From Dehalococcoidia bacterium (GTDB lineage Bacteria > Chloroflexota > Dehalococcoidia > Lucifugimonadales > UBA3495): a stretch of DNA of 64,000 bases. The notes under the pieces are model-generated. The model searched no databases and was not told the origin of the DNA. It was given only the letters and a program-made list of their open reading frames with translations. This document shows, one piece after another, positions 2,894 to 59,817 of this stretch. The first letter of the stretch is position 1, and every line of letters starts with the position of its first letter. Location: NCBI GenBank assembly GCA_963666865.1, contig OY763072.1, positions 842,572 to 906,571 of the forward strand, given 5' to 3'. The position numbers were made by a program, and so were the translations under genes.

Positions 2894-2928
2894 CCGAGTA
2901 CGCTGGGGACGCCACCCCCGACGGGGTG

Positions 2929-3836: not shown

Positions 3837-4102
3837 CTGGCCCATGCCTTTCTGGCAGCGACCCGGCGCTACGCCGTCGGTGGCCATGGCAAAAGGGGGC
3901 GGTCCCCCCGGGAGAACTCATCCCGTTGACCGTGTCCGAGGTCAGACTGCTGCTCTGCCGGCTGCTGTGGCTACCCCGAGGCAGTCCTGCCCTGACCATC
4001 CAATGGTCAGGATGGAGACGCCGGCATCAGGCCCGGGCTAGACAGTGTCATTACAAGAGACGCTTTCTGAGACTTTCACCACAAGCGCGACTGTAATATT
4101 AG

Positions 4103-20898: not shown

Positions 20899-20962
20899 TG
20901 GACTCGAACCACTGACCTCTTGCGTGTCGAGCAAGTACTCTAACCAACTGAGCTAACCGCCC
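20886..20962 (-). tRNA. tRNA, anticodon GAC (Val) if the canonical 7-nt loop is assumed; CCA encoded
   Basis: Cloverleaf by hand: acceptor GGGCGGT/ACCGCCC, D arm GCTC..GAGT, anticodon stem CTTGC/GCAAG with loop TCGACAC, T arm AGTGG-TTCGAGT-CCACT, A73, CCA. Position 33 reads C, which is unusual. Confidence 0.8.
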
Positions 20963-21078: not shown

Positions 21079-21106
21079 GTAGGGGCGAATAATTATTCGC
21101 CCCTAC
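21079..21106. repeat. REP-like perfect palindrome GTAGGGGCGAATAATTATTCGCCCCTAC
   Basis: 28-nt perfect inverted repeat in the tRNA-pncB intergenic region. Shares GTAGGGGCG...CGCCCCTAC ends with the elements at 25.2 kb. Confidence 0.7.
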
Positions 21107-22665: not shown

Positions 22666-24528
22666 ATGAAGATCGCCGTCTGCGTTAAATTTGTCCCCGT
22701 AGTTTCGCGCATCGAGTTCGACTATGAGAACAAGGTGATACAACGGGAGGGTGTGCCGTCGGAGATTAATCCCTTCGACCTGTTGGGCATCAACATGGCG
22801 GTGGACCTGAAAGACGGCGATGCAGACTCAATAATCGCTTTGTCAATGGGTCCACCCAACGCCGCCGAGGGCCTCACGCAGTGCTACGCGCTGGGCGCCG
22901 ACCGGGCCTTGCTGCTGTCCGACCGGGCATTGGCCGGCAGCGACACGCTGGCGACGGCGCAGGCCCTGGCCCTGGCCCTGCAGCGTGAGGCTCCCGACCT
23001 CATCGTCTGCGGACGCAACAGCAGCGACGCCGAGACCGGCCAGGTGGGGCCGGAAGTCGCTGAGCTGATGGGACTGCCCCACATCAGCAACGTCCGCAAG
23101 CTGGAGGTGGACCGCTCCGCTAACCGCATCACGGTCGAGCGCGTGACCGACGAGGGCTATCAGGTGCTGGAATGCGGGCTGCCCGCAGTGGTGTGCGTCA
23201 CGGAAGGGGCCGGCCAGGAACGCTATCCGGGTCGGGAGGAAATGGCCGAGGCGGAGGGCAAAGCCATTGAGCAGTTGACCTGCGCTGATTTGACCGATCC
23301 GCCACAGGCGGACTTGTTCGGACTGGAAGGCTCGCCCACGTGGGTTGAGGACATCCGCCTGGTGGAACCCGACCGGCTGGGTGTGGTGATCCGGGACGAG
23401 ACGCCGGAGGACGCGGCACGGCAAGTCGCTGATATGCTCCGGGAACGGCTGGCCACGATAACCGCCGCAGGAGAGCAGGGTTCCGGCGACGCGGCGGCGG
23501 TGCGCTACGCCGGCGGGGACCGAAGCATCTGGGTGTTGGCGGAGTTGGCGGGTGGCGGCGTGCGGCAGGTTACGCTGGAAATGCTGGGCAAGGCCCGGGC
23601 GCTCGCTCCAATCACCCAGAGCGAGGTGGTAGCGGTTGTTATAGGCGAAGGTGCGCCGGATGAGGCCATCACCGGGCAATTGGCGGAGTACGGCGCCGAC
23701 CGCATCCTGACGCTGGATACCACCGGGCTGGGTATGCTCTGCGGTCGCGGCGTGGCGGACACGCTGTCCGATGCCATCGCGCAATCCGCCTCCGGCGGAC
23801 CCTACGCCGTGCTGTTCGCGGCCACCGCCGACGGGCGGGATCTCGCCGCCCGCATCGCCGCCCGGCAACGCCTTGGCCTCACTGGCGACGCCATCGACCT
23901 GGAGATCAACGACGCCGGCCAGTTGGTGCAGTTGAAACCGGCCCTGGGCGGCAACGTGGTTGCGCCCATTCTGTCCAAAACCCTGCCGAACCTGGTCACG
24001 CTGCGGCCGGGCGTGCTGACGCCGGCAGCGCCGGAACCGGGTGCGACGGCGCCCGTAGAAGCCATCGCTCCATCACCCGCCGCCGGCTCCGACGCAACAT
24101 TGGTCAGCGAGCATCTTTCCGAGGAACACGGCGCGCTGGAACTCACCTCCGCCGAGGTGGTGGTCGGCCTCGGTATGGGGGTGACGGAAGAGGGAGTGCC
24201 CGCCGCGCAGAAGTTGGCGTCAAGCATAGGCGCGTCCATCGCTACGACCCGCAACGTGGTGCATTCCGGCTGGCTGCCGCATCACATCCAGGTGGGCATC
24301 AGCGGGCGCACCATCGCGCCGCAGGTCTATCTGGCGGTGGGCATCCGGGGAGCGTTCAACCACACCGTCGGCATACAGAAAGCCGGCATTATCCTGGCCA
24401 TCAATCGCAACCACCGGGCGGCCATCTTCCGCGCCGCCGACTACGGGATAGTCGGCGACTGGAACGAATACCTGCCGCCGCTGGTTGAGGCCATCGGCCC
24501 GGTACTGGCGGAGCACGGGCTGGGATGA
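22666..24528 (+). CDS. fused electron-transfer flavoprotein, EtfB (N-terminal) plus EtfA (C-terminal), 620 aa
   Basis: N-terminal MKIAVCVKFVP...NPFD...GPEVAELMGLPH (beta subunit). C-terminal PQVYLAVGIRGAFNHTVGIQKAGIILAINRN (alpha subunit FAD site). Confidence 0.8.
   Translation: MKIAVCVKFVPVVSRIEFDYENKVIQREGVPSEINPFDLLGINMAVDLKDGDADSIIALSMGPPNAAEGLTQCYALGADRALLLSDRALAGSDTLATAQALALALQREAPDLIVCGRNSSDAETGQVGPEVAELMGLPHISNVRKLEVDRSANRITVERVTDEGYQVLECGLPAVVCVTEGAGQERYPGREEMAEAEGKAIEQLTCADLTDPPQADLFGLEGSPTWVEDIRLVEPDRLGVVIRDETPEDAARQVADMLRERLATITAAGEQGSGDAAAVRYAGGDRSIWVLAELAGGGVRQVTLEMLGKARALAPITQSEVVAVVIGEGAPDEAITGQLAEYGADRILTLDTTGLGMLCGRGVADTLSDAIAQSASGGPYAVLFAATADGRDLAARIAARQRLGLTGDAIDLEINDAGQLVQLKPALGGNVVAPILSKTLPNLVTLRPGVLTPAAPEPGATAPVEAIAPSPAAGSDATLVSEHLSEEHGALELTSAEVVVGLGMGVTEEGVPAAQKLASSIGASIATTRNVVHSGWLPHHIQVGISGRTIAPQVYLAVGIRGAFNHTVGIQKAGIILAINRNHRAAIFRAADYGIVGDWNEYLPPLVEAIGPVLAEHGLG
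23785..23799. repeat. TCCGCC-N3-GGCGGA palindrome (loop TCC), the only copy outside an IS
   Basis: tccgcctccggcgga, in frame (SASGG) inside etfBA. Confidence 0.8.
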
Positions 24529-37649: not shown

Positions 37650-39677
37650 ATGGCCGTATCCGCCAGTACCATTCGCAACGTCGCGCTGCTATCCCATAGC
37701 GGCGCGGGCAAGACCACCCTTGCCGAGACCATGCTGTTCAACGCCAAGGTGATTAACCGGATCGGCCGTGTTGAGGACGGCAACACCGTTTCCGACTACG
37801 AACCGGAGGAAGCCAAGCGTTCCGCCAGCGTGCAGACCAGTCTGCTGCGGTTCTCGGAGGGAGACAACAAGGTCAACCTGCTCGACACCCCGGGCTATGA
37901 CGAGTTCCTGGGCGAGGCCGTTGCCGCCGTCCGGGTGGTGGAATCGGCGATGATCCTGGTGGCCGCGCCCACCGGCGTTGACGTCGGCACCGAGCGCGCC
38001 TGGGACATGGCGCAGGAACGCGGATTGCCCATCGCCATCGTCCTCAACAAGATGGACCGGGAAAACGCGAGCTTTGAGCGCAACGTACAGGAACTGGTGA
38101 GCATCTTCGGCAACCGCTGTGTCCCCTTCCAGCTGCCCATCGGCGAAGCCCAGGATTTCACCGGCCTGGTGAGTGTCATCGACCCGCCGGCCGACATCCC
38201 TGCCGGGGTGGTGGGCGATTTTGATTCCGCCCGCGAGCGTCTCATTGAGGCGGTGGCAGAGTCCGACGACGCCCTGGCCGATAAGTACCTGGAAGGCGAG
38301 GAAATCACCGCCGCCGAGGTAACCGCCGGCGCCCGCGAAGCCATCCGCAACGGCGACCTGGTTCCCATCCTAGTGTCCTCGGCAACGCAGAACATTGGCG
38401 TCGAAGAACTGGTCCAAGTGATACACGATTTCCTGCCGTCGCCAGCCGACCTGCCGGCGACCTCCGGCGATGACGACATAACGGCCGACGCCTCCGGCCC
38501 CGCCGCCGCGCTGGTGTTCAAGACCACATCCGACCCCTTCGTGGGCAAACTGTCAATGTTCCGGGTCTATCGTGGTACGGCCCATTCCAACGGCGAGATC
38601 TATAACGTCAACAAGGGAGAGTCCGAGCGGTTGGGCCAGTTGTACCTGCCCCAGGGCAAGAACCAGGACAACGTGGCCGAGGTGGTCGCCGGTGACATCG
38701 GCGCTGTGGGCAAACTGAACGCCACCCTCACTGGGGACACGTTGGCCGCCAGCGACAATCGCGTTACGCTGACCGGCATTGACTTCCCCAAGGGCTTCTA
38801 CTCGCTGGCCGTGGTTCCGGCGACCCAGGCCGACCTGGACAAGATGAGCACCTCCCTGGCGCGCATCGTCGAGGACGACCCCAGCCTCCAGTTCACCCGC
38901 AACCCCGAAACCAGCGAGAGCCTGCTCACCGGCCTGGGCGAAGTGCAGATTGAAGTGGCCCTGGACCGCATCAAGCGCAAGTTCGGCGCCAGCCTCAACG
39001 TCAAGCTGCCCGTGGTCCCCTACCGCGAGACCATCACCCAGATCACCAACTCAGAATACCGGCACAAGAAGCAGACCGGCGGCAGCGGCCAGTACGGTCA
39101 CGTCCTGCTCCGGATCGAGCCGAAGACCCGCGACGAAGGCTTCGAGTTCGGCAACGAGGTGGTCGGCGGGCGCGTGCCCCGGGAGTTGATACCCGCGGTG
39201 GAAAAGGGCGTCGTCAACACGCTGAGAGAAGGCGTACTGGCCGGCTTCCCGGTGGTGGACCTGAAAGCCGTCATCTACGACGGCAGCACGCACCCGGTGG
39301 ACGGCAAACCCATCGCCTTCGAGATCGCCGGCAGCCAGGCCCTGCGTCAGGGTATGCAGAAGGCGTCGCCCGTGCTGCTGGAGCCCATCGTCCGGCTGTA
39401 CGTCACCGTCCCGGAGAACTACACCGGCGACATCATCAGCGACCTCAACGGCAAGCGGGGCCGCATCCTGGGCATGAACCCAGAAAACCGCTACACGGTA
39501 ATCGAGGCTGAGGTCCCCCAGGCCGAGGTGCAGCGCTACTCCCAGGACCTGCGCTCCATGACCGGCGGCCGCGGCTCCTACCGCTACGAGTTCGACCACT
39601 ACGAGCAGGTGCCGCAGAACATCGAGCAGCGCGTCATCGACACCGCCAAGCAGGCCAAGGAGGGGGCAACGGCTTAA
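37650..39677 (+). CDS. elongation factor G paralogue (EF-G2-like), 675 aa
   Basis: AHSGAGKTT-type G1 motif (LSHSGAGKTTL), DTPG, NKMD. Stand-alone, not in an rpsL-rpsG context. Confidence 0.85.
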   Translation: MAVSASTIRNVALLSHSGAGKTTLAETMLFNAKVINRIGRVEDGNTVSDYEPEEAKRSASVQTSLLRFSEGDNKVNLLDTPGYDEFLGEAVAAVRVVESAMILVAAPTGVDVGTERAWDMAQERGLPIAIVLNKMDRENASFERNVQELVSIFGNRCVPFQLPIGEAQDFTGLVSVIDPPADIPAGVVGDFDSARERLIEAVAESDDALADKYLEGEEITAAEVTAGAREAIRNGDLVPILVSSATQNIGVEELVQVIHDFLPSPADLPATSGDDDITADASGPAAALVFKTTSDPFVGKLSMFRVYRGTAHSNGEIYNVNKGESERLGQLYLPQGKNQDNVAEVVAGDIGAVGKLNATLTGDTLAASDNRVTLTGIDFPKGFYSLAVVPATQADLDKMSTSLARIVEDDPSLQFTRNPETSESLLTGLGEVQIEVALDRIKRKFGASLNVKLPVVPYRETITQITNSEYRHKKQTGGSGQYGHVLLRIEPKTRDEGFEFGNEVVGGRVPRELIPAVEKGVVNTLREGVLAGFPVVDLKAVIYDGSTHPVDGKPIAFEIAGSQALRQGMQKASPVLLEPIVRLYVTVPENYTGDIISDLNGKRGRILGMNPENRYTVIEAEVPQAEVQRYSQDLRSMTGGRGSYRYEFDHYEQVPQNIEQRVIDTAKQAKEGATA

Positions 39678-40048: not shown

Positions 40049-40086
40049 CGAGACTCTTACCTATTCGTAGGCAACGAAGTCGAAGT

Positions 40087-40248
40087 TCCCCAGGCTGAAG
40101 CGCGGTGCTACTCCTTGGGCGTGCGCTCCATGACCGGCGGCCGCGGCTCCTACCGCTACGAGTTCGACCACTACGAACAGGTCCCGCAAAAATCGAGCAG
40201 CGGGTGATCGACACCGTCAAGCAGGCCGAGGAGGGGGCGACGGCGTAA
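40087..40248 (+). pseudogene. displaced duplicate of the EF-G-like gene 3' end
   Basis: 40123..40248 aligns with 39551..39677: the first 54 nt are identical, then about 10 substitutions and a 1-nt deletion (cagaacatcgag versus caaaaatcgag). Weaker similarity continues back to about 40087. Confidence 0.8.
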
Positions 40249-43669: not shown

Positions 43670-43927
43670 ATGCCGTACCTGCTCGACAGCCTGGCAAGGA
43701 GCGCACGCGCGATGAGTTGGATCAGCAACGCCGTAAGGAGCGCACGCGCGATGCGTTGGGTTACCAACGCAATCTTTTTCGTCGGGGTGCCCGCCGGCAT
43801 TGTTGCAGGGCTTGACGTGGGCGGGCAATGGGACGTTCCCGAGTGGCTCCTTTACACGTGCGCCCTGGCCATCGCAGTAGTCCTGGTAGCCGGGATAGCA
43901 GTGGTCATTTTCGCCAAGGCGGACTAG
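43670..43927 (+). CDS. small membrane protein with a 33-nt tandem repeat
   Basis: ARSARAMSWISNAV / RSARAMRWVTNA repeat (about 43696..43761), then two hydrophobic helices. Confidence 0.35.
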   Translation: MPYLLDSLARSARAMSWISNAVRSARAMRWVTNAIFFVGVPAGIVAGLDVGGQWDVPEWLLYTCALAIAVVLVAGIAVVIFAKAD

Positions 43928-46797
43928 CTGACTCCCGCCGTATCAGGGCCCGGCCCCGCCCGCTCCAGGTTCAGCGCCAGCAGTCGTTCCAGTATCTCCC
44001 CGTCCGCCAAATCGGCCGGCCAGCCATACGCCTCGGCAACGGCGGCATCCAGGGCGGCGTGGGCGTTGCTCAGCCAGGTGGGACGCTGGTTGTAGAGATT
44101 GGTCAGCGTGCGGCGGCGTCCGCCGAGGCGGACTCCGCTGAGGTCCGTCGGATTCAGCCAGTTCTCCCGCAGGCGGTTCAGCTCAGCGGCGGCCGCGACG
44201 ATGGCCTCCCGCTGCTCGCCGGCGGGATGGGGGAAGGGGAAGGTTTCAAAGCACGTTGTTGGCGTGTAGCGCAGTCCGCTCGTCGCTTCACGCAGCTGAG
44301 TACCCATCGCCGTCGCCCAGAGAATGTGTATTCGGCTTTGCAACACTCCAAAGAAATAATCGTCATCACGAGCGAACACAATAATAGTAGCGTCAGGCAA
44401 TACCTCACCATCAATCCAACGAAACATCCGGTGTCTGGACACCATGCTGGTGCCAACGTAGCGTCCTAAACCGGCCAATGCCTGCCGCATACCGGGGCGA
44501 GCCTCGGCATGTATCCACCACAGTTGAGCGTAACGTTTTCTTCTGTTTTGAATCCTGTCGGGCTTTACATTCGCCGCAACATACTCAAAGGGTGCCTCGT
44601 ACAGAGCGGCATCGGACTCCGGCATATCTACGCCGAAGTCAATTATCCACATATGCCGGGAGCGCTGGTTAATGTCTCTGCCTATCATCCAACGCCTGAT
44701 GACATCACTGTTTGGCTTGCCGTGAGGATTGGGGGCACTCAACATCTCCTTCGCAACTTCGCCAGTTATTTCAAAAGGACCAACCTTCGTATCCCCCATG
44801 AAACTGATACTTGCATTTTCTTCCAGCCTCCGCGCCAGCGCCAAATCAGCCCCTGCCGTCAAGTCAACATTGATATTTGTAACCGCATGACCGTCCAGAT
44901 AGCGGTCAGTATCGCTCCCGTCGTCAAAACAGACGATGGAGACATGCACGGCGGCTCCCTCCAGCACCCAATCCTTATCTGACATGGCGGCAAAAATATC
45001 GCCGGTCTCTTTGATGCGAGCAAGCACCGGCCGGTTAGACTGGAACCGTATTGCTTGTGTCGCCAACAGGCCGGTCCGCTTGGTAGCGCCCGATGCAATC
45101 TGGCCCCGCGCTTTTTCGAACCAATAGCAGCACAGGTCGCTGTAGTTGGGAATGCGGTTGCCGTAAAGCGAGTACGCTGCACTTACGTAGTCATCGCCTA
45201 GCGACTCACGAAAAGGGAAATGGCCCAAAAACGGCGGGTTCCCCACGATAAACTCCGCCGCCGGCCATTCCGGTTCCGCGGGATGCTCCGGGTTAGACAG
45301 GTCAAGAATAGCGTCGGTCTGGCGGATGGTATCCAGCGGGGTCAGTATCGGGCGGTGGGTGTAGGGGAAGCCGTTGGCCTGGTGCCATTGGATGTAGCCA
45401 ATCCAGAGGGCGGTGCGGGTCAGTTCGGCGGCGTAGTGGTTGATTTCGAGGCCCAGCATCTGGTCGGGCTGCACCGTGGGCGTCAGGCCATGCCAGCCCT
45501 GGGCCGCGGCGAAGTCGATGACCTGTTTCTCCAAATCCAGCAGCGAGCGCAGGGCCAGGTAGAGGAAGTTGCCGCTGCCGCAGGCCGGGTCCAGCACGCG
45601 CACGCCGGCCAGCCGCTTCTGGAACTCCTCCAGCCGTTGCCGCGCCGGCGTATCGTCAGAAGCAGGATTCGCCGGATTGGTGGGATTGACCGGATTGGGG
45701 GGTTCTCCATCATTGAACGGCTCCAATCCTGATAATCCTTCAAATCCCGAAAATCCTGCTTCTGACAAAAGCTCCTCAATCTCCCGCCGGGCGGCGTCCC
45801 ACTCCCGGCGTAGCGGCTCCATCACTACCGGGTCAATGACCAGCATGATGTCGTCGGCGCCGGTGTAGTGGGCGCCCAGTTGGGAGCGTTTGGAGGCGTC
45901 CAGGGCTCGCTCGAACAGGGTGCCGAATATGGACGGCTCGATGTTGCGCCAGTTCTTCTGGGTGGCTTCGCCCAGCCGTTGCAGGGCGGTGGCGCTCAAT
46001 TCCACCGTGTCCCCGGATCCTTGACCAAATCCCTTGAACAGGTCCCCGTTGAAGTGGGGAATCTCGTCGGCCCCGAACAGGCCGCCGCCGGCCATTTGGG
46101 CAAAGAGGTCGGCCACGGCCTGATTGAACAAGTCCTGGCGGCGGAACAGTTGGCGCACGGTACGGGTGAACAGTCCCTCGGGCAGCAGTCCGGCGTCCTC
46201 GGCGTAGAGGCAGAAGACAATCTGGTTGAGGTAGCGGGCCAGCCGTTCCGGCCCCGTATCGGAGTACGGGGTGACGTTGTCTATGCGGGCCTCCATGTCG
46301 GCCACGATGTCGCGGAACAGGTCGGCGGTTTCCTGGGTAACCTGCTCCACCGTGCGGTTGGGGCGGAACTCGGCCGGCGCGAAAAAGGCGTTGCGCAGCT
46401 TGTCCAGATGTTCGGGCCGGTCCAGCTCAGCGACGGGGATCACGTGGAGGATGGTTTCCAAGCCCGGAAAGTTGGTGCGTATCCGGATGGTGTCGAAAGA
46501 CGACACGATGAGCAGGGGCGGCGTTTTCAGATAGACCTGGTAGCGTAGCAACTGGTTGATGGCTTCCGGCAGCTGCGCGTCGCTGCTTTTGAACTCCCAG
46601 CCGAACCGCTCCTCCAGGTAGGCGTCGGCAAAGCCGCCGGGCACCGCCTTCTCGAAGGTGAAAACCTCCGGGTTGCCGTAGGCCACCGGCGTGGGATGAC
46701 CCACCAGGGCGCAGATGTCCAGGAACATCTCCTGCGACGCCTGCTTCTCGCCGAAAGTGACTCCCTGCCACTTGGCGATGAACTGCTGGGGAGTCAT
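43924..46797 (-). CDS. MmeI-like type IIL restriction-modification enzyme (nuclease plus N6-adenine methyltransferase in one chain)
   Basis: N-terminal GFADAYLEERFGWEFKS (D...ExK as in the MmeI family), LDPACGSGNFL (motif I), GNPPF (motif IV), 957 aa. GGAG lies 9 nt before ATG 46797. Confidence 0.8.
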   Translation of the reverse strand: MTPQQFIAKWQGVTFGEKQASQEMFLDICALVGHPTPVAYGNPEVFTFEKAVPGGFADAYLEERFGWEFKSSDAQLPEAINQLLRYQVYLKTPPLLIVSSFDTIRIRTNFPGLETILHVIPVAELDRPEHLDKLRNAFFAPAEFRPNRTVEQVTQETADLFRDIVADMEARIDNVTPYSDTGPERLARYLNQIVFCLYAEDAGLLPEGLFTRTVRQLFRRQDLFNQAVADLFAQMAGGGLFGADEIPHFNGDLFKGFGQGSGDTVELSATALQRLGEATQKNWRNIEPSIFGTLFERALDASKRSQLGAHYTGADDIMLVIDPVVMEPLRREWDAARREIEELLSEAGFSGFEGLSGLEPFNDGEPPNPVNPTNPANPASDDTPARQRLEEFQKRLAGVRVLDPACGSGNFLYLALRSLLDLEKQVIDFAAAQGWHGLTPTVQPDQMLGLEINHYAAELTRTALWIGYIQWHQANGFPYTHRPILTPLDTIRQTDAILDLSNPEHPAEPEWPAAEFIVGNPPFLGHFPFRESLGDDYVSAAYSLYGNRIPNYSDLCCYWFEKARGQIASGATKRTGLLATQAIRFQSNRPVLARIKETGDIFAAMSDKDWVLEGAAVHVSIVCFDDGSDTDRYLDGHAVTNINVDLTAGADLALARRLEENASISFMGDTKVGPFEITGEVAKEMLSAPNPHGKPNSDVIRRWMIGRDINQRSRHMWIIDFGVDMPESDAALYEAPFEYVAANVKPDRIQNRRKRYAQLWWIHAEARPGMRQALAGLGRYVGTSMVSRHRMFRWIDGEVLPDATIIVFARDDDYFFGVLQSRIHILWATAMGTQLREATSGLRYTPTTCFETFPFPHPAGEQREAIVAAAAELNRLRENWLNPTDLSGVRLGGRRRTLTNLYNQRPTWLSNAHAALDAAVAEAYGWPADLADGEILERLLALNLERAGPGPDTAGVS

Positions 46798-46880
46798 AAC
46801 CACGCTCCATGTTGAATGATGCAAAGTCTGGGAGTTATGCTACCATTGACTGACGATTACTGCTGGACGGGTACTTAATT

Positions 46881-50101: not shown

Positions 50102-51290
50102 GCAGGGCTATCGCATATGAAAAATTGAGGTGTCAGGTAAGATAGCGTCCAAACTGCTGAGGTGGGGAGGACACCATGAGCGAGCTAGCGGACGTATTTG
50201 GCGATTTGGAAGACCCTCGGGCCGTCAATGCGCGTCTCCATTCCCTGCACGACATTCTGGTCATCGCTCTATGCACCATCGTCTGCGGCGGTCAGACTTG
50301 CACCGACATGGAGCTTTTCGGGCATTCCAAACGGGAGTTTCTGGAGTCCTTTCTGAATCTGGAAAACGGCATTCCCAGCCACGACACTTTCTCCCGGGTG
50401 CTGGGCAAACTGGATCCGGAAGCTTTCCAGCGGTGGTTTTTGAGGTTCATGGAACAGTTCGCTCAAGGGGTTCAGGGAGTGGTGGCCATGGACGGGAAGA
50501 CCTTGCGGCGTTCTTACGACCACGCGGCAGGACAGTCCGCCCTGCATCTGGTCAGCGCTTGGGCGGAAGAGCGGCGCCTGGTGTTGGGACAATTGGCCGT
50601 TGACGACAAGTCCAACGAGATTACGGCGTTGCCCAAGCTGTTGGAAATGTTGACCTTGCAAGGCAAGGTGGTTACCGTCGATGCCCTGAATTGTCAGCGT
50701 CAGATTGCTCAGCAAGTGATTGACCAGGAGGGCGACTACGCGCTAGCGTTGAAAGGCAATCAAGGTACGCTCTACGACGATGTAAAACTGTTTCTGGACG
50801 ACGCGGACACGCCGGCAGCTCAGGCCACCCAGGTCAGCAAGGGCCACGGACACATTGAAACCCGCACCGCCAGTATTAGCGACGACGTAGCCTGGCTGCA
50901 GGAATGGCACGACTGGCCGGGCTTGCAGGCCGTGGGTAAAGTAACAGCGGTCCGCCGTAAAGACGGCGACACCAGCGAGGAAACTCGTTATTACCTGCTG
51001 AGCCAGGCCTTCCCGCCGGAGCATTGCAACGACATCGTGCGCGGCCATTGGGGCATTGAGAACCGGCTGCATTGGGTATTGGACGTAACCTGCAACGAAG
51101 ACCAGGCGCGGAACCGGAAAGGGCATGGCGCGGAGAACCTGGCGTTGCTGCGTAAGTTGGCGCTGAATCTGGCGCGGTTGGAACCAAGCAAGGGGTCCAT
51201 GCGGGGCAAACTGAAACGGGCCGGTTGGGACAACTGCTTCCTCATCAACATCCTCTCCCAATTCACCAAAATCCATATGCGATAGCCCTG
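50102..51290 (+). mobile_element. ISAs1-family insertion sequence, apparently intact
   Basis: Perfect 17-bp inverted repeats cagggctatcgcatatg (50102..50118) and catatgcgatagccctg (51274..51290). Confidence 0.9.
50176..51285 (+). CDS. ISAs1-family (H-repeat-associated) transposase
   Basis: 369 aa uninterrupted; DPR...H.L.DIL, AMDGKTLRRS, DALNCQ and HWGIENRLHWVLDV motifs. Confidence 0.9.
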   Translation: MSELADVFGDLEDPRAVNARLHSLHDILVIALCTIVCGGQTCTDMELFGHSKREFLESFLNLENGIPSHDTFSRVLGKLDPEAFQRWFLRFMEQFAQGVQGVVAMDGKTLRRSYDHAAGQSALHLVSAWAEERRLVLGQLAVDDKSNEITALPKLLEMLTLQGKVVTVDALNCQRQIAQQVIDQEGDYALALKGNQGTLYDDVKLFLDDADTPAAQATQVSKGHGHIETRTASISDDVAWLQEWHDWPGLQAVGKVTAVRRKDGDTSEETRYYLLSQAFPPEHCNDIVRGHWGIENRLHWVLDVTCNEDQARNRKGHGAENLALLRKLALNLARLEPSKGSMRGKLKRAGWDNCFLINILSQFTKIHMR

Positions 51291-52689: not shown

Positions 52690-53092
52690 GGCTCCGCCGC
52701 CTTCGTGCCTCCGCCTCCGGAAGACATCCCCGCCCTGCTGGACGACCTGATGGCCTTTTGCAACGACGACGGGCTATCTCCCTTGGCCCAGGCCGCCATT
52801 GCTCACGCCCAGTTCGAAACCATCCACCCCTTCGTGGATGGCAACGGGCGCGCCGGATGGTCACTGGTTCACCTGGTGCTGCGCCGACGTGGGATAGCAA
52901 CGCGGTTTCGGCCGCCGGTCTCCCTGGTCCTGGCGACGTGGGCAGAGGACTACGTAACGGGGCTTACGACCACTCGCTACGTCGGCGAACCCAGGCTCGG
53001 AGGCTGCCCACAAGGGCATGAATCGCTGGGTCGCCTTCTTTCCCGGAGCGTGCCGGCGAGCGGTGTCGGACGCCCGACAGTTCGAGGATCCG
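52690..53092 (+). pseudogene. Fic-domain protein remnant (N-terminal part missing, 3' end run into IS)
   Basis: AAFVPPPPEDIPALLDDLMAF...AHAQFETIHPFVDGNGRAG (Fic HPFxDGNGR motif). Stop at 52684..52686 in the same frame just upstream. Confidence 0.75.
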
Positions 53093-53207
53093 GGCCAGCT
53101 GAGATAGCGGGGTGAAGTGAGACCATGCTGGGCGAGCGATCCGACCAGAGGGGCCTGTGGGAGGCGGACCAGTTGTACTTGGATCTGGTGGGTAAGGACA
53201 CGTTCTA

Positions 53208-53222
53208 TCCGCCCATGGCGGA
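53208..53222. repeat. TCCGCC-N3-GGCGGA palindrome (loop CAT) in IS1182-like tnp
   Basis: tccgcccatggcgga, at frame switch 1. Confidence 0.9.
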
Positions 53223-53617
53223 CTGGCCTCGTTGCGGGGCCAGCTGTTCCGCGACGCCGACTTCGCCGAGCTGTACTGCCTGGACAATGGCCGGGTCAGC
53301 GTGCCGCCCAGCCTCCTGGCCACGGCGCTGCTGTTGCAGACCCACGACAAGGTGAGCGACGCCGAGGCCAAGGCTCGGGCCGACTTCGACATCCGGTGGA
53401 AGGTGGCGTTGGGGATTGAGATCGAGGATCGGCCCTTTGCCAAGAGCACACTGCAGGTGTTCCGTGCCCAGTTGATCCTGCACGACAAGGTGCGTGAGGT
53501 GTTCGAGCAGAGCCTGCGGTTGGCCCGTGAGGCCGGCTACCTGAAGGGAAAGCGTGGGATGCGGGTGGCGATGGACACGACGTACATCCTGGGACGCGGT
53601 GCGGTGAAGGACACCTA

Positions 53618-53632
53618 CCCGCCTGAGGCGGA
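53618..53632. repeat. (C)CCGCC-N3-GGCGGA palindrome (loop TGA) in IS1182-like tnp
   Basis: cccgcctgaggcgga, at frame switch 2. Confidence 0.9.
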
Positions 53633-54105
53633 TTGGCCGACGGCATCGTGAAGCTGATGCGGGCTTTGGCGGCGGTGGAGGGTATTCCGATGCGGCGCTG
53701 GGCGGAGGGCCACGGTTACAAACGCTACGTGGGCAGCAGCGTGAAGGGAGAGGCGGCCATCGACTGGTCCAACCGTCGGGCGCGGCGGAGGCTGTTGGGA
53801 CAGATTGTGGCGGATGCCGACCGGCTGCTGGAATTGGCCCGTCAGGCCCAGGACGCGTTGGACGCCGACAGCGCCGAGCGGCAGGCGATAGTTGACGCGG
53901 CGGAGTTGCTGGGCCAATTACTGCTCCAGGACGTGAAGCGTGGTGACGACGACGATAATGGTGACGGCGGGGTGAGCCTGAAAGAGGGTGTGAGCAAGGA
54001 CCGGATGGTGTCGGTGCACGATCCGGAGATGCGCCACGGCCACAAGAGCAAGAGCAAGAGCAAGCGCTTTGACGGGCACAAGGCCGCGGTGGTGGTGGAC
54101 ACCGA

Positions 54106-54120
54106 TCCGCCTCAGGCGGA
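54106..54120. repeat. TCCGCC-N3-GGCGGA palindrome (loop TCA) in IS1182-like tnp
   Basis: tccgcctcaggcgga, at frame switch 3. Confidence 0.9.
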
Positions 54121-54205
54121 TTGATCACCGCGGTGGACGTTTTGGCGGGCAACGCTGCCGACAATCTGGGAGCGCTGGAGTTGGTGGAGCAGAGCGAGGC
54201 CAGCG

Positions 54206-54220
54206 TCCGCCGCAGGCGGA
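54206..54220. repeat. TCCGCC-N3-GGCGGA palindrome (loop GCA) in IS1182-like tnp
   Basis: tccgccgcaggcgga, in frame (VRRRR). Confidence 0.9.
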
Positions 54221-54950
54221 TACCGGTGGTGGAGGCCATGGGTGACACTGCCTACGGCGACGGTGGCACCCGCCAGGCTTTCGCCGACGCGGGGCGCAAG
54301 CTGGTGGCCCGAGTGCCGGGCCGTCCCAACCGGAAGTGTTTCCCCAAGGAAGACTTCATCATCGACCTGACCCAGGGAAGTTGCACCTGTCCGGCGGGAC
54401 AGGTCACCTGCACCATCGTGCCGGCGGGGAAACGAACCGACAGTGCTGGGACGGTGCATCGTCTGCAAGCCTTCCGCTTTGACGGTGCGGTGTGCCAGGG
54501 CTGTCTGCTGCGGTCCCGATGCTTTACCGCCACAGGCAGGAAGGGAAGGCAGGTGCTGATCCACCCGCAGGAAGGCTTGTTGCAAGAGGCTCGGGCGTTG
54601 CAGCAGAGCGCTGACTACGACCAGTACCGGCAACTACGCGTGGTGGCGGAGCATCGACTGGCTCGGCTGGAGCAGTTGGGCATCCGTCAGGCCCGTTACT
54701 TCGGGCGGGTCAAGACCAAGTTCCAGTTGTACCTGGCCGCCACGGTGGCGAACTTAACCCTGATGGCCAACCAAACCGGTGTGGTCGGTAATTCTGGCGA
54801 TGGCTCCGACTGCATCGTCGCCACCGCTCAAATTGGCGGTAATCTCGGCGTGGGTCGGCACCTAACGACAACCCGGATGCTGGCTTGGCTCAGGTCGCCA
54901 ACACTGGCCCTATCTCTCTCTCCGATCAAGGCTTTCCGGCCCGCTTTCTA

Positions 54951-55833
54951 GCAGCCAGTAGCCCTTGCCCGGTTCTCTCAGGGGACGTATTTCCACGGCG
55001 GCCCAGTCGTAGACCCGGGGGCCTTTGGCTCCATCGCCGGCGCTGCATCTGATCCAGTCGGCCTCGTCAACCTGCGCCGTCAACCGGTCAGCCCTCACCT
55101 GTCTGGGACCCTTGTCCGTCAAAGCCTACAGCTTCTCGTTGCGCTTGATGGCCAGCACGTGGGGAATCCCCTGACGCTCCAGCCACAGCCGCAACTTGCG
55201 GTCACTGCCGTAAACCTCGTCCCCGGTAAACCAAGCGAAGGGAACACCCGATGCCAGAGCCCGCTCCAACATCTGCCGGGCCAGTTGCCCCTTGGTCTGA
55301 AAGCCAACGCTCTCAGGCACCCTGGCCTCGCGCCGCCGCTCCCGGTCATCAGCCCACACCTGGGGCAGGTACAGCTCCCGGTCCAGCAGTGTCCTGCTAT
55401 TGGCCGAGGCATAGGACAGGAATGCCCCAATCTGACAGTTCTCGATCCGCCCCGCCGTACCGCTGTACTGGCGCTGCACCCCAGCCGATTTCTCCCCTTT
55501 CTTGATGAATCCGGTCTCGTCCACCACCAGGACCGCATCTCCGTCGCCCAGATGCTCGACCACATACTGTTTCAGATCATCCCGGACCAGGTCCGCGTCC
55601 CAGATGTAACCCGACAGCAGGCGCTGCACACCGTAGGGAGTGGCGTCGCCCGCTTGCTCCGCCAACTGCCAGCCGTTCTTGCGTTCTACCGGGCTGAGCA
55701 ACCCTTTCAGATACTCCAGGGCCCGCCTGCGCGGCTCCGGCCGCTGAAACCTGCCTGCGATGCACTGGTGTACCCGCTCAATGCCCTCGGCCCACCGGGC
55801 GACCTCCGCCACCTCGTCTCTCCCAACAACCAT
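54951..55833 (-). pseudogene. IS701-family transposase remnant (copy 2), 3' third removed by the IS1182 insertion
   Basis: [21 protein letters not shown]...[32 protein letters not shown]...; in-frame TAG (NEKL*ALTDKG) where copy 1 has Trp. Ends at ...GKGYWLL next to the IS1182 end. Confidence 0.8.
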
Positions 55834-55940
55834 CGCCTCACCTCAACACTCCTTTTGCCTGAAATTCTACCCTCTTCTGATCTGCAACTGTAGTACTAGG
55901 GCGTGTTCACACTATGTAGCGCGGCATTATAACGCGGCGC

Positions 55941-56755
55941 ATGGAAATTACGGAAGAACAGTACCAACGGATCGCGCCGCACTTCCCCGTACAGCGAGGC
56001 AACGTCAGCATCCCCAACTTGCAGGTGTTGAACGCTATCCTCTACGTCAATGAGCACGGTTGCAAATGGCGGGGTTTGCCTCCGTCCTTTGGTGACTGGC
56101 ACACCATCTATACTCGGATGAACCGCTGGTCCAAAAAGGGCGTGCTGGATCGGGTTTTCGCGGCCTTGCAGGAGGAGGGAATTGTCCGGGTCAATGTGGA
56201 GGTGACGGCCTTGGACAGCACCAGCGTGAAGAGCCTGCCCCGTACTGGATACGGGGTGCATCCGGACGGCGCTGGGGCGCTCAAAAAAGCGGGTTGCAAG
56301 CCATCGGCAAGTCCCGGGGCGGCTGGAACACCAAAATTCATCTGGTTGCCATCCGCCTGGGGCGGAAGCGCAATGCGGTGACCCCGTATCAGGTACGGGG
56401 CAGGCTCTTTGCGCTGTCGCCCGGGGAAGCTCATGACGGGCCGGAGGGCCGCCGCCTGTTGGAAAGTTTGGGGCCGCAAGAACCTGGGACCAAGTTGCTG
56501 ATGGATCGGGCCTATGAAGGCAACCCCACCCGCGGGTTGGCGGTGGAATTGGGGTATGACCCGGTAGTGCCGCCGTTGCGCAGTCGGAAAGAACCCTGGG
56601 AATATGATCGGGAGATGTACAAAAGGCGGAACGAAGTCGAGCGACTGTTCCGGCGGTTGAAAAGGTTCCGCCGCATCTTCAACCGATACGACAAGCTGGA
56701 TGCGATTTTCAGCGGCTTCATCCTGTTCGCCCTCATCTACGATGCCCTGCAATAG
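55941..56755 (+). CDS. IS5-family transposase OrfA/OrfB (two frames; a -1 shift is needed)
   Basis: OrfA ...NAILYVNEHGCKWRGLP...; OrfB QAIGKSRGGWNTKIH...MDRAYEG...RNEVERLFRRLKRFRRIFNRYDK. Contains three short palindromic extra segments, so activity is doubtful. Confidence 0.65.
56238..56256. repeat. CCCCGTA-N5-TACGGGG palindrome (loop CTGGA) in IS5-like orfA
   Basis: Lies within an in-frame extra 8-aa segment (SLPRTGYG) relative to the expected VKxH..AAGA. Confidence 0.8.
56283..56289 (+). promoter_or_regulatory. A6G slippery run at the orfA/orfB overlap (possible programmed -1 frameshift or transcriptional slippage)
   Basis: ctc aaa aaa gcg. A -1 shift gives ...LKK-SGLQAIGKSRGG. Confidence 0.45.
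56352..56366. repeat. TCCGCC-N3-GGCGGA palindrome (loop TGG) in IS5-like orfB
   Basis: tccgcctggggcgga. Part of an extra segment of about 11 aa between HLV and FALSPGEAHD. Confidence 0.9.
56382..56400. repeat. CCCCGTA-N5-TACGGGG palindrome (loop TCAGG) in IS5-like orfB
   Basis: ccccgtatcaggtacgggg, 15 nt after the previous palindrome. Confidence 0.85.
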
Positions 56756-56774
56756 TGTGAACACGCCCTAACCC

Positions 56775-56890
56775 ATGATGCCTTCCATCGGCTCTGGACC
56801 TACTACGGCAAGCTCGACGAGGACGACCTTCAGCGGTTCGTGTCCACGGCCTCCGCGATACTGGCCAACTACGAGGCCATAAGACCGTGA
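56775..56890 (+). pseudogene. orphan 3' gene fragment
   Basis: HDAFHRLWTYYGKLDEDDLQRFVSTASAILANYEAIRP-stop, directly after the IS end, with no upstream continuation. Confidence 0.3.
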
Positions 56891-57083
56891 GAATAATCAG
56901 CCTTCAGGGAGGCATAGCCTACCTGAAGAAGACCACGTGTAGGAAAACCAAGTGTGTTCGGGCGGGAGGGAGCGAGAGCGCCGGGCAACCAACGCGATAT
57001 TGAGACTCACGCGCACCCATTTTGTCATCGCGAGGAGTGAAGCGACGTGGCGATCTCGTTCCCGCAGTAACGTTCCTTGCCTC

Positions 57084-57855
57084 TCACGGCGTCACCTCGT
57101 ACTCCACCTGCGCCACCTTTCGCTCCCCGTCGTACATCATTACCCAGTAACGGCCCGTAACCCACCGGTCGGGATCGGAAGGACCCAGCGGAGTTCTCCA
57201 CCAACCGCTGGTTCTTCCTGGCTGAAAATAAAAGTCGAAAATCTCCCTGTCAAATGCGAAGCCGTCCATGTAGTACTCCACTGTCTCAAGGGGAACGGAT
57301 ATGAGTTCGGTGGATTGGGAGAACTCGAACCTCCGGTACAAGTACACCCGGCCCTCGATCTCCTTGAGCTCCGAGATCGACACTTGGGACGTCCGCGTGT
57401 CCGCGTCCGCCGGCCATTCCTGGTCCAGCGAGATGAATGCGTCCGCAATCCGCCCGTTGATGCTCGGTAGGCTGGGATCTGCCGGCCGATCATCCAGGTA
57501 GCTCAGGTCGTACGGCTCGGTACCGTAGTACCACCGGTTGATCACTGTGTCCACCGCTGCGATAACATCAGGCCCGGCGCCCTTTTTGAACGCATCGTCC
57601 ACCGCGTCAATGCCACCGTGGACGCTCCGTCCCTTTGTCGCTCGGTACAGGTTGCGGAACCCTTGCTGGAACTGATCCCGTCCCAGCGTCCGGTACAGGT
57701 CCAGGAACAGCCGTTCCCCCAGCGAGTAGTTGCAACTGAACTCCGCCCAGTAGCCGCCGCCTGGGTTCTGGGGATCCGCTCGGTCCAACTCGCCCAGGTT
57801 TGCGTAGTAGGCGCATGGACCCCAGTCCGCGGTCAGCGGTGCGCCGGTGAGCGTG
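57084..57855 (-). pseudogene. C-terminal fragment of an unidentified (possibly peptidase-like) protein, 5' part removed at the IS1182 copy 2 junction
   Basis: Coding-like 257 codons (…YYANLGELDRADPQNPGGGYWAEF…). The apparent ATG at 57872 lies inside IS-derived sequence. Confidence 0.5.
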
Positions 57856-57872
57856 TTATCCACGGTGATCAA

Positions 57873-57887
57873 TCCGCCTGAGGCGGA
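57873..57887. repeat. TCCGCC-N3-GGCGGA palindrome (copy of 54106..54120)
   Basis: tccgcctgaggcgga. Confidence 0.9.
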
Positions 57888-58354
57888 TCGGTGTCCACCA
57901 CCACGGCGGCCTTGTGCCCGTCGAAGCGCTTGCTCTTGCTCTTGTGGCCGTGGCGCATCTCCGGATCGTGCACCGACACCATCCGGTCCTTGCTCACACC
58001 CTCTTTCAGGCTCACCCCGCCGTCACCATTATCGTCGTCGTCACCACGCTTCACGTCCTGGAGCAGTAATTGGCCCAGCAACTCCGCCGCGTCAACTATC
58101 GCCTGCCGCTCGGCGCTGTCGGCGTCCAACGCGTCCTGGGCCTGACGGGCCAATTCCAGCAGCCGGTCGGCATCCGCCACAATCTGTCCCAACAGCCTCC
58201 GCCGCGCCCGACGGTTGGACCAGTCGATGGCCGCCTCTCCCTTCACGCTGCTGCCCACGTAGCGTTTGTAACCGTGGCCCTCCGCCCAGCGCCGCATCGG
58301 AATACCCTCCACCGCCGCCAAAGCCCGCATCAGCTTCACGATGCCGTCGGCCAA

Positions 58355-58369
58355 TCCGCCTCAGGCGGG
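58355..58369. repeat. TCCGCC-N3-GGCGG(G) palindrome (copy of 53618..53632)
   Basis: tccgcctcaggcggg. Confidence 0.9.
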
Positions 58370-58764
58370 TAGGTGTCCTTCACCGCACCGCGTCCCAGGA
58401 TGTACGTCGTGTCCATCGCCACCCGCATCCCACGCTTTCCCTTCAGGTAGCCGGCCTCACGGGCCAACCGCAGGCTCTGCTCGAACACCTCACGCACCTT
58501 GTCGTGCAGGATCAACTGGGCACGGAACACCTGCAGTGTGCTCTTGGCAAAGGGCCGATCCTCGATCTCAATCCCCAACGCCACCTTCCACCGGATGTCG
58601 AAGTCGGCCCGAGCCTTGGCCTCGGCGTCGCTCACCTTGTCGTGGGTCTGCAACAGCAGCGCCGTGGCCAGGAGGCTGGGCGGCACGCTGACCCGGCCAT
58701 TGTCCAGGCAGTACAGCTCGGCGAAGTCGGCGTCGCGGAACAGCTGGCCCCGCAACGAGGCCAG

Positions 58765-58779
58765 TCCGCCATGGGCGGA
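58765..58779. repeat. TCCGCC-N3-GGCGGA palindrome (copy of 53208..53222)
   Basis: tccgccatgggcgga. Confidence 0.9.
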
Positions 58780-59304
58780 TAGAACGTGTCCTTACCCACC
58801 AGATCCAAGTACAACTGGTCCGCCTCCCACAGGCCCCTCTGGTCGGATCGCTCGCCCAGCATGGTCTCACTTCACCCCGCTATCTCAGCTGGCCCGGAGT
58901 ATAACCTCCACTTCGCCAGGCGGGGTTTCCGGCCAGCTTTCTAGGGCGTGTCGTCAAATTATTTTAGTCCAGAGTGCGATGGCGCGGATCTGGCAGTTAG
59001 CCAAGAAAGAAGCGGCTTTCTTGGCATATCGGGTCGCAACCCCGCGCCATTGCTTGAAGTTGCAAAATCCATTCTCCACCAAGTGCCGCGCCTGGTACAA
59101 ATCCCGGTCGTATTCCCGCTGCTCCCGACGGTTGCTCCGGGGCGGTTTCACCACGTTCATCCCCCACGATGATGCCATGGCCACGATTTGATTGGTGTCA
59201 TACCCTTTGTCCGCCAGCAGATGCTCCGCCGCGATACCCTCGATCAATGCCAGCCCCTGAGTACAATCGGCAGTGGCGCCTGCCGTCAGTATCATCCGCA
59301 CCGG

Positions 59305-59319
59305 TCCGCCTCTGGCGGA
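59305..59319. repeat. TCCGCC-N3-GGCGGA palindrome (loop TCT) in IS5-like tnp
   Basis: tccgcctctggcgga, between DAH and PVRMILTAG (frame switch). Confidence 0.9.
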
Positions 59320-59537
59320 TGAGCATCCACCGCCAGATGGAGCTTACTGTTCAGCCCCCTTTGGTGCGCGCGATGGCCTGGTTCCCGCCCACGGCGCCAG
59401 CAGCATGAAGATGCACCTTGATATGACTGGCGTCAATCATCAGCCACTCAAAATCGGGGTCGTCAATCACCGCTGCCAGCAACCAGTCCCACACGCCCCG
59501 GTCCCGCCAGCGGCAGTAGCGACGATGAGTGTTCTTC

Positions 59538-59552
59538 TCCGCCTTTGGCGGA
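59538..59552. repeat. TCCGCC-N3-GGCGGA palindrome (loop TTT) in IS5-like tnp
   Basis: tccgcctttggcgga, in frame on the coding strand (PPKAE) inside DYG-PPKAE-KNTHRRY. Confidence 0.9.
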
Positions 59553-59817
59553 CCGTAGTCTGGGGGAAGGTCCCGCCAAGGCGCGCCGGTGCGTAGTATC
59601 CAGAATACGGCGTTGAGAAACCGGCGGTTGTCCGGGGCGGGTCGGCCCACCTTGCCCGCGCCGCCGGGCAAAGGGGGGCGAGGATTTGCCAAACTCGGTC
59701 GGAAATGTCGTGCCGGCGATGTGATGCTGCCATATGCTACCCTGCCTTTGACCCATGTACAGCACCAATTTATCATTACACCTCAATTTGACGACACGCC
59801 CTAGCAGCAGTAGGTGG

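Follow-up and report, generated by a model that had tools for sequence, protein, structure and literature searches.

The DNA examined here is a 64-kb stretch of the genome of a Dehalococcoidia bacterium (GenBank assembly GCA_963666865.1, contig OY763072.1), called the window throughout, in which short palindromes of two kinds lie inside genes, mostly those of transposases. The more frequent, TCCGCC-N3-GGCGGA (type A), is present in 14 exact copies, whereas dinucleotide-preserving shuffles predict 0.04 and none of 100 shuffles reaches the observed count. There are also two type A copies with one mismatch (at 53618 and 58355) and a single variant with a 2-nt spacer (N2, at 44119). The second palindrome, CCCCGTA-N5-TACGGGG (type B), occurs twice, at 56238 and 56382, against an expectation of 0 from shuffles. 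A preliminary description of the window had listed 15 type A copies, one of them outside insertion sequence (IS) DNA. Its coordinates are all correct on checking, although the tally becomes 14 exact copies, or 16 with near-exact ones included. Most copies do lie in IS DNA, but two lie outside it, both in the ETF gene (22666–24528).

These copies amount to 13 independent type A events, because three of them were duplicated along with one IS. Specifically, self-comparison reveals that 57860–58898 is a reverse-strand copy of 53089–54133 (99% identity), and the palindromes within 57860–58944 duplicate those of that segment. The independent events are distributed among a DDE_5-type transposase remnant (four), an IS1182-like element (four), two IS5-type elements (one and two) and the ETF gene (two). 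The features, including one possible further copy and one IS gene that lacks palindromes, are as follows.

2600–4100, forward strand: DDE_5-type transposase remnant, with four type A copies plus one nonsense codon
2879–2893: type A; about 9 nt replaced by 17 nt, net +8, frameshift
2929–2943: type A; QRL becomes SAGGG, net +6, in-frame
3621–3635: type A; net +7, frameshift
3822–3836: type A; 5 nt replaced by 15 nt, net +10, frameshift
22666–24528, forward strand: ETF beta-alpha fusion gene, an intact open reading frame (ORF) of 620 amino acids (aa) with two in-frame type A copies
23298–23312: type A, ETF site 1; DLS becomes PPQAD, net +6
23785–23799: type A, ETF site 2; QP becomes SASGG, net +9
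44119–44132: possible decayed type A copy, TCCGCC-GA-GGCGGA, with a 2-nt spacer and flanks g..c, within an intact 966-aa MmeI-like restriction-modification (R-M) gene (43924–46824)
50176–51285, forward strand: ISAs1-type transposase gene (DDE_Tnp_1_assoc + DDE_Tnp_1), intact, no hairpin
53089–54960, forward strand: IS1182-like copy A (DUF772 + DDE_Tnp_1_6), with about 45 nt of its left end gone
53208–53222: type A; TGGGCTG replaced by 15 nt, net +8
53618–53632: type A with one mismatch (CCCGCC); AATCTA replaced by 14 nt, net +8
54106–54120: type A; CAGCCAA replaced by 15 nt, net +8
54206–54220: type A; 6 nt replaced by 15 nt, net +9, in-frame (VRRRRI)
55897–56770, forward strand: IS5-type element 1, with 19-bp perfect terminal inverted repeats, an A7 site near 56282 and ORFs that are still open
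56232–56256, reverse strand: type B unit, AGCCTG + CCCCGTA-CTGGA-TACGGGG; clean +24 nt, in-frame, encoding SLPRTGYG
56352–56366: type A; replaces codons around the 'AAD' of the family
56382–56407, forward strand: type B unit, CCCCGTA-TCAGG-TACGGGG + CAGGCTC tail; with the 56352 copy net +33 nt, in-frame
57860–58944, reverse strand: IS1182-like copy B, 99% identical to copy A, with the true left end; truncated 13 nt past the hairpin at 57873
57873–57887: type A, duplicate of 54106
58355–58369: type A with one mismatch, duplicate of 53618
58765–58779: type A, duplicate of 53208
58941–59804, reverse strand: IS5-type element 2 (DUF4096 + DDE_Tnp_1), with two type A copies plus one unrelated frameshift
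59305–59319: type A between DAH and PVR, where the family has G-M; net +8, frameshift
59538–59552: type A; D-W becomes PPKAE, net +9, in-frame

Palindromes as extra DNA in their host genes

Nine related IS1182-like copies are empty at all four sites that are filled in copy A. When the three +8 changes are undone, copy A becomes a single complete 600-aa ORF, and thus the hairpins are the only lesions of this element. The mismatch in the copy at 53618 arises because a C of the target was retained. Copies A and B have three hairpins in common but differ in truncation, indicating that the element was duplicated after it had gained them. The homology of copy B to copy A stops 13 nt past a hairpin, adjoining a 262-aa ORF without Pfam match (57084–57872), and the hairpin at 57873 may have served as the breakpoint for this truncation. 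A Fic/DOC domain fragment (52705–53115) adjoins the truncated left end of copy A. Among 5.8 billion proteins there is no intact IS1182-like copy of the window's lineage with more than 91% identity, the best match being 91%.

For IS5-type element 2, twelve family homologues read DAH-GM-PVR and PPDYG-DW-KNTHRR at the two affected positions. As the preliminary description had it, the copy at 59305 separates ...HLAVDAH from PVRMILTAGATADC, two segments in different frames, with the net +8 it inferred, and the copy at 59538 is in-frame (PPKAE); the latter removes a nearly invariant Trp. A further frameshift in this element (59630–59700), between HRRHDISDRVWQILAPL and LPGGAGKVGRP near a C-run, involves no palindrome. 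Element 1 was compared with IS5 copies from Burkholderia and Cupriavidus. Two of its segments had been proposed to be extra residues: SLPRTGYG is indeed a clean +24-nt addition, whereas IRLGRKRNAVTPYQVRGRL is partly a replacement that takes the place of 8 family residues (net +33 nt, from a copy of each type, A and B). The reading frame also changes near 56282, at an A7 run that is the usual programmed frameshift site of this IS5 group and is likewise present in proteobacterial copies; judged from this comparison, the change is unrelated to the hairpins. A role for the hairpins as stimulators of programmed frameshifting was rejected, as hairpins 40–65 nt away from the A7 site are wrongly placed for it.

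Type B is distinct from type A, being an asymmetric unit of about 24 nt, CCCCGTA-N5-TACGGGG-CAGGCT(C), that inserts cleanly. In another metagenome-assembled genome (MAG), a DDE_3 transposase gene carries a third copy with the same tail, in-frame (+24), and all three short-form copies reside in IS5 or DDE_3 transposase genes. The type B core is also found inside longer intergenic palindromic repeats, TCCGGCGAAAGAACGTCA-CCCCGTA-N5-TACGGGG-TGACGTTCTTTCGCCGGA, at two of the loci used for comparison (designated by L numbers: L003 at 6263 and 8411, L007 at 5345). These long-form relatives carry CGTCA beside the stem and may represent the parent family of the short unit.

Comparison with relatives, suggested in the preliminary description as a way of dating the insertions, reveals that the two sites in the ETF gene were filled one after the other. 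At site 1 the window, L003 and L001 carry the hairpin, and L002 and more distant orthologues do not; at site 2 it is carried by the window and L003 alone, L001 and L002 being empty. The identities of these orthologues to the window are 98% (L003), 96% (L001) and 94–95% (L002), and the nested presence and absence among such close orthologues therefore makes the insertions sequential and recent. In the protein alignment, TD-DLS-LFG corresponds to TD-PPQAD-LFG and AIAQ-QP-PYA to AIAQ-SASGG-PYA, and the orthologue lengths step by about 5 residues. At site 2, the empty DNA reads GCGCAG-CAGCCT-CCCTAC (L001, L002) and the filled DNA reads GCGCAA-TCCGCCTCCGGCGGA-CCCTAC (window, L003), a net gain of 9 nt. 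The beta-alpha ETF fusion is kept in more than 100 Chloroflexota homologues of 614–625 aa, and other 5-residue length steps in the protein are not of type A origin. The ETF homologues, together with 80 loci carrying IS1182-like transposase relatives, all derive from Dehalococcoidia or SAR202-type MAGs.

Type A segments are missing from sets of 12 and 2 IS5 homologues, from nine IS1182-like loci and from two DDE_5 copies. The palindromes are thus extra DNA and not conserved segments of the transposase families, and they inactivate or damage host genes; on both points the preliminary description was right. An Rfam scan of the whole window returns only a tRNA (20889–20962), and none of the palindromes matches at the gathering score.

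Unit structure and replacement of target bases

Among the hairpins in 261 kb of sequence from this clade, type A recurs most often, with 29 exact copies. Its spacer is 3 nt long in 29 of 30 copies there, the N2 copy at 44119 being the lone exception. For 26 type A events, the base just outside the arm is a pyrimidine in 48 of the 52 outward flanks, compared with 52% after other GGCGGA hexamers. Because a pyrimidine flanks both arms outward, the full unit is taken to be the 17-mer RTCCGCC-N3-GGCGGAY, a perfect palindrome with a stem of 6–7 bp and a loop of 3 nt. As single-stranded DNA, this hairpin has a computed stability of about -7.3 kcal/mol. The loops are variable yet non-random, as TGA/TCA, GCA/TGC and TCT/AGA recur.

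Comparison of filled and empty homologous sites establishes that each event is a substitution-insertion, in which a target of about 7 nt (range 5–10) is swapped for the 15-nt palindrome (13–17 nt inserted). The modal event converts R-N7-Y to R-15mer-Y, with CTGG often adjoining the target on one side, and the net gain is mostly +8 nt. The preliminary description, which had spoken of removing 8 nt to recover the usual spacing, was correct about the net change but not about the event itself, wherein roughly 7 nt are replaced by 15. Presence and absence are seen at homologous sites in the ETF, IS1182-like and DDE_5 genes (the last measured against an intact homologue and an 82%-identical copy in L206), in both IS5 types relative to their families, and in a DDE_Tnp_1_4 gene in L004. 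No target-site duplication is found at about 12 filled/empty pairs (ETF, IS1182-like, DDE_5 and the L004 gene). Approximately one-third of the events are in-frame. As for the loop as a possible relic of the target, about 4 of 12 loops are also present in the segment that was replaced. Type A copies are single, not head-to-head dimers, with nearest neighbours 47–100 nt apart; paired copies 47–50 nt apart occur in two different IS (2879/2929 in the window and 4759/4806 in L004). In the proteins of these MAGs, type A copies account for five-residue inserts that read PPxA[DE], SAxGG or VRxRR.

Two sites that are filled in the window are filled in L206 as well. At 53208 the boundaries are identical in the two genomes (loops CAT and TAT) although the IS copies are 85% identical, and the site is empty in closer relatives (L207, 90%; L004–L006). 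At 2879, the L206 copy of the DDE_5 gene has a reverse-complemented loop (GCA versus TGC), a boundary displaced by 1 nt and one imperfect arm. Segment-wise identities give no sign that the filled IS1182-like copies of the window and L206 are sisters. On these comparisons, independent insertion at the same place would be the simpler reading of both shared sites.

Several simpler rules for the choice of site were considered and rejected. A 3-nt duplication around CCGCC ('XYZ-CCGCC-XYZ') fits only one copy, at 9977 of L206. Pre-existing GGCGGA half-sites lie near 2879, 56352 and ETF site 2, but this hexamer occurs about once per 400 nt and the association is not significant. Restriction-site logic, in which GGCGGA(C) would be the site of the MmeI-like enzyme (43924–46824), fails because the half-site is not avoided, with 95 + 67 hexamers in 64 kb. 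The 44119 copy within the gene for this enzyme may be a decayed or frame-restoring type A copy, in a third gene outside IS DNA.

Concentration in IS DNA and its possible causes

Independent type A events are divided unevenly among the three kinds of DNA in the window.

Unique IS DNA, 7.2 kb: 11 independent type A events
Other genes, 49.7 kb: 2 independent type A events
Intergenic DNA, 6.0 kb: 0 independent type A events

The concentration in IS DNA reported in the preliminary description is therefore upheld, with a binomial p of 2.8e-9 when the whole window is the reference and 1.3e-3 when intergenic DNA alone is. It repeats in relatives. All eight copies in L206, an IS-dense HiFi contig, reside in DDE_Tnp_1, IS1182-like, Transposase_mut and DDE_5 genes, and all three in L004 reside in DDE_Tnp_1_4 and IstB_IS21 genes. 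Copies are carried by eight transposase or IS-helper Pfam types in the window and its relatives together. The non-IS loci L002, L208 and L209 (65.6 kb) hold no type A copy, L001 and L003 hold only those in the ETF gene, and other Dehalococcoidia loci (about 1.5 Mb) are almost entirely free of them. Not every IS in the window carries hairpins, since the ISAs1-type gene has none, and the IS110, IS21 and DDE_3 genes of L206 are likewise untouched. Within the four affected IS, about 13 lesions are hairpin events and 2 are of other kinds.

The two events in the ETF gene keep the frame (+6 and +9), whereas those in IS are mostly +8. The contrast between genes and IS is thus in part a tolerance filter, as a +8 event in a needed gene would be lethal. 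Such a filter leaves unexplained both the hairpin-free intergenic DNA and the restorable 600-aa ORF. As a rough estimate, were intergenic DNA to take up hairpins at the rate implied by the IS, the window and L001–L003 should differ at dozens of places, and no such difference is seen.

The same 17-mer is also present far from this clade. A scan of metagenome contigs yields at least 120 matches, mostly single, with unrelated taxa among the matches listed; loops TGA/TCA, GCA/TGC and AGA/TCT predominate in that list, and six of the loci have a computed G+C content of 43–57%. One unrelated contig (L152, 47% G+C) carries a repeat of two adjacent type-A-like 17-mers (loops GCA and AGA) three times, at 140–200, 1715–1760 and 3980–4040. 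Beside these doublets is an ORF (4802–5482) that barely reaches the Pfam threshold for Y1_Tnp (IS200/RAYT type), and a LAGLIDADG-like ORF lies at 988–1554.

We considered whether other palindromes undergo the same process in other Dehalococcoidia and rejected this, as 28 IS1182-like copies in three MAGs vary by tandem repeats and not by hairpins. Within one MAG, the IS1182-like ORF exhibits GGCGAC expansions (L073, L074, L076–L078 and L080; alignment columns 905–917) and, again within one MAG, expansion of a 12-nt unit, CAGTGCCGTCCC (L047, L063 and L076–L078; columns 1774–1798). An intergenic family of the form ..CGTCAT-TCCCGC-N4-GCGGGA-ATCCAAACCCCCGTC.. is found in L040, L049, L050, L068, L073, L076 and other Dehalococcoidia MAGs. 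It looks like an ordinary intergenic family resembling CGTC-tagged repetitive extragenic palindromic (REP) elements or miniature transposable elements with inverted repeats (MITEs). In the window itself, a 28-nt perfect palindrome, GTAGGGGCGAATAATTATTCGCCCCTAC (21079–21106), has GTAG at its start and CTAC at its end, in the manner of a GTAG-tagged REP, and lies in the spacer beside the tRNA gene (20889–20962, minus strand). A 168-nt direct repeat (39510–39677 and 40082–40248, 87.5% identity) comprises the 3′ end of an EF-G-like gene and a second copy about 400 nt downstream. The region from 43.9 to 60 kb, with its R-M gene, ISAs1-type IS, He_PIG protein, Fic fragment and IS cluster, resembles a genomic island.

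We tentatively favour, at a little below an even chance, the explanation that type A is a tagless minimal element of the REP or small dispersed repeat (SDR) kind, inserted in trans by a candidate enzyme with a real bias to IS DNA. Types A and B would then be the smallest elements of this kind, non-coding hairpins that are copied to new sites. About 7 target bases between a purine and a pyrimidine would be removed and the 15-mer put in, by an enzyme most likely to be a nuclease or transposase that recognizes single-stranded-DNA hairpins, perhaps of the HUH/Y1 (RAYT-like) class. Frame-shifting copies would persist only where the frame is irrelevant, as in IS, whereas needed genes such as ETF would keep in-frame ones. 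Because IS DNA gains hairpins far more often than other dispensable DNA, integration itself may be biased to IS DNA or to its sequence features. IS copies that bear hairpins can still be copied. Insertion polymorphism, the structure of the unit, the loss of target bases, the IS bias and the recurrence at sites are shown by the data, and mobility in trans, the enzyme class and the reason for the bias are inferred from them.

Several observations weigh against this proposal. Neither a GTAG nor a CGTC tag is present in the flanks of the 26 type A events, which have only R/Y beside the stem, and no donor or master locus for type A was seen. A Y1/HUH gene is lacking among the window ORFs scanned, and tblastn with the L152 protein gave no match in about 2.3 Mb, a search that would miss distant RAYTs. 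IS200/IS605-type enzymes, to our knowledge, do not integrate by replacing target bases. The intergenic DNA of the window, the kind of place where REPs as a rule lie and abound, has no type A copies. The loop is more variable than the stem, which is not explained by simple copying, though loops are non-random. Finally, the sites filled in both the window and L206 could stem from mosaic IS histories instead of repeated targeting.

The strongest competitor, which we nonetheless consider unlikely, is a dedicated process directed against IS or repeated DNA that cuts out about 7 bp and seals in a fixed 15-nt hairpin, disabling the element and so acting as genome defence by insertional scarring, in loose analogy to fungal repeat-induced point mutation. 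Such a process would be consistent with the strong IS bias, also relative to intergenic DNA, with the range of targets (eight transposase or IS-helper Pfam types) and with the clustering of copies 47–50 nt apart within a gene. It would equally suit an IS1182-like copy A whose sole lesions are hairpins, the replacement of catalytic or conserved residues at 56352 and 59538, and the possible copy in the R-M gene. Yet the housekeeping ETF gene has been struck twice, while the ISAs1-type IS in the window and IS110, IS21 and DDE_3 in L206 have been spared. Furthermore, about one-third of events are in-frame, an affected IS was later duplicated, no candidate gene is known, and the tolerance filter alone covers the contrast between genes and IS. 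We know of no described prokaryotic counterpart to IS defence of this type.

Less likely again is that the hairpins are scars of a larger transposon that prefers to land in IS, the arms being the outermost 6–7 nt of terminal inverted repeats left by excision or abortive transposition. Constant arms around a varying centre would result from such a process, and the loops are often T-N-N, the commonest (TGA, TCA, TGC and GCA) being derivable from TG+CA. Nesting of IS is common in IS clusters, and a site preference would also be natural. A 3-nt centre in 29 of 30 copies is too regular for end-joining, however, and target bases are lost without duplication. A parent element with TCCGCC.../...GGCGGA termini plus longer inverted repeats was sought and is absent from the window and close relatives. 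The hairpin footprints raised as a possibility in the preliminary description are weakened by this near-invariant spacer, the lack of duplication and the missing parent. Two stretches bounded by TCCGCC...GGCGGA, with 16-nt perfect terminal inverted repeats, occur in L033 (7085–8339) and L045 (14115–17908). They are possible candidate IS with type-A-like termini, in distant genomes otherwise without type A.

More doubtful still is template switching, in which a nascent strand copies an existing extruded hairpin by microhomology and rejoins a few bases downstream. Variable boundaries (13–17 nt in, 5–10 nt out) without duplication are as this model predicts, as are occasional shared junction bases and the partial similarity of some targets to the arm (3621, 56352 and ETF site 2). 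It leaves unexplained the IS bias, the pyrimidine outside both arms and recurrence at identical sites. Moreover, loops differ between copies, and only 4 of 12 are found in the replaced target.

It is very improbable that the hairpins are neutralized at the RNA or translation level, by bypass or frameshifting, such that the transposases are functional and their ORFs under selection. The rest of IS1182-like copy A is a perfect ORF, a hairpin-bearing IS has been duplicated and the frames of IS5 element 1 are open, all of which such recoding would accommodate. No single recoding solution would serve net changes that range from +6 to +10, though, and the sites inspected lack matching take-off and landing codons or slippery sequences. 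Conserved residues are destroyed, and the 5.8 billion proteins include no intact copy of more than 91% identity. Chance, assembly artefact and conserved parts of transposase families, for which the high G+C of the window is the sole favouring point and which merit almost no credence, do not account for the palindromes, as 0 of 100 shuffles reach the observed counts, the same copies occupy orthologous sites in independent assemblies built by different methods, and each transposase family has homologues without the segments.

Comparison with known palindromic repeats

The preliminary description held that no bacterial mechanism of this sort has been described, which is too strong, given that REPs, including intragenic ones (PMC3733652), Rickettsia palindromic elements (RPEs) and cyanobacterial SDRs are on record. 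REPs, short palindromes with a tag, are believed to be mobilised by RAYTs (PMC3733652; PMC3116915; PMC12306157), with stems of 5–13 bp and loops of 2–20 nt (PMC3733652), and annotations in E. coli are as short as 14 nt (PMC12306157). Intragenic cases comprise two REPs in one ORF and same-site insertions in recB of two Xanthomonas species (PMC3733652). Type A is similarly a G+C-rich repeated stem-loop whose stem (6–7 bp) and loop (3 nt) are inside these ranges. It likewise exhibits presence/absence polymorphism between relatives and intragenic copies, including two per ORF and same-site ones, and the identical 17-mer forms REP-like doublets beside the Y1_Tnp-like ORF of L152.

There are also clear differences. 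REPs often lie downstream of ORFs, frequently pair head to head (REPIN/BIME) and usually flank a cognate Y1/HUH (RAYT) gene of the same genome. Type A has no GTAG/CGTC tag or tail, and at 15–17 nt it is at or under the lower size limit. It is found as single units and not as inverted dimers, with doublets only in the unrelated L152. It is absent between genes, is concentrated in transposase genes and replaces about 7 target bases, and no RAYT was found among the window ORFs scanned. Type A therefore departs from REPs in tag, extragenic location and dimer formation, and a tagless minimal REP is the closest fit to its behaviour.

SDRs are reportedly 21–27 nt long, hairpin-forming, apparently mobile and inserted within mobile elements. 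On these features they would resemble the window elements as very small hairpin units in mobile elements, and type B (about 24 nt) is in the same size class. We know of no report of target replacement or a bias to transposase ORFs for SDRs. They have been reported only in Nostocaceae (PMC5861425). The host considered here is of another phylum, and type A is smaller still and a perfect palindrome.

RPEs, about 100–150 bp long, resemble type A as palindromic repeats tolerated within ORFs for functional proteins, comparable to PPQAD and SASGG in the ETF protein. They are not concentrated in IS, and they add a peptide module, whereas type A mostly shifts the frame. In the work cited by PMC3733652, RPEs are presented as selfish DNA lying in-frame in protein-coding genes. 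MITEs and excision footprints (for instance those of Tc1/mariner and the P-element) have in common with type A an inverted repeat with a variable centre and a non-coding character. MITEs, however, measure 70–300 bp (PMC3733652). Type A has a fixed 3-nt centre and lacks both target duplication and a parent element, and thus its size of 15–17 nt, the absence of duplication and the absence of a parent IS set it apart from MITEs.

Among eukaryotic systems, fungal repeat-induced point mutation (RIP) is an inactivation aimed at repeated or selfish DNA by point mutations, and the GC clusters and 'byp' elements of yeast mitochondria are small G+C-rich palindromes that enter genes, the GC clusters being 30–50 nt long and duplicating a target dinucleotide. 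These systems are eukaryotic or organellar, and RIP inserts no DNA. HIP1 of cyanobacteria is an 8-bp sequence thought to arise by substitution without change in length (PMC5861425). It is a short palindrome far above chance frequency that is also found inside genes, as is type A, but HIP1 is spread over all genes whereas type A changes length and is concentrated in IS.

Should type A prove mobile, its 15–17 nt would make it roughly the smallest mobile DNA unit on record, and elements of the REP/SDR type would be extended to Dehalococcoidia. Replacement of about 7 bases without duplication matches no transposition chemistry known to us, and identifying the enzyme could reveal a new way to write short sequences into DNA. 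The transposase bias, with hairpins often the sole lesions, suggests a major, previously unnoticed route of IS inactivation in IS-rich genomes, and even defence is possible. Type A copies explain many 'frameshifted transposase' calls, and the presence or absence of individual hairpins is a fine-scale marker for strain history. Among known systems, type A is best described as an extremely small variant of the palindromic mobile repeats represented by REPs, SDRs and RPEs, unusual in its replacement of target bases and its accumulation in transposase genes.

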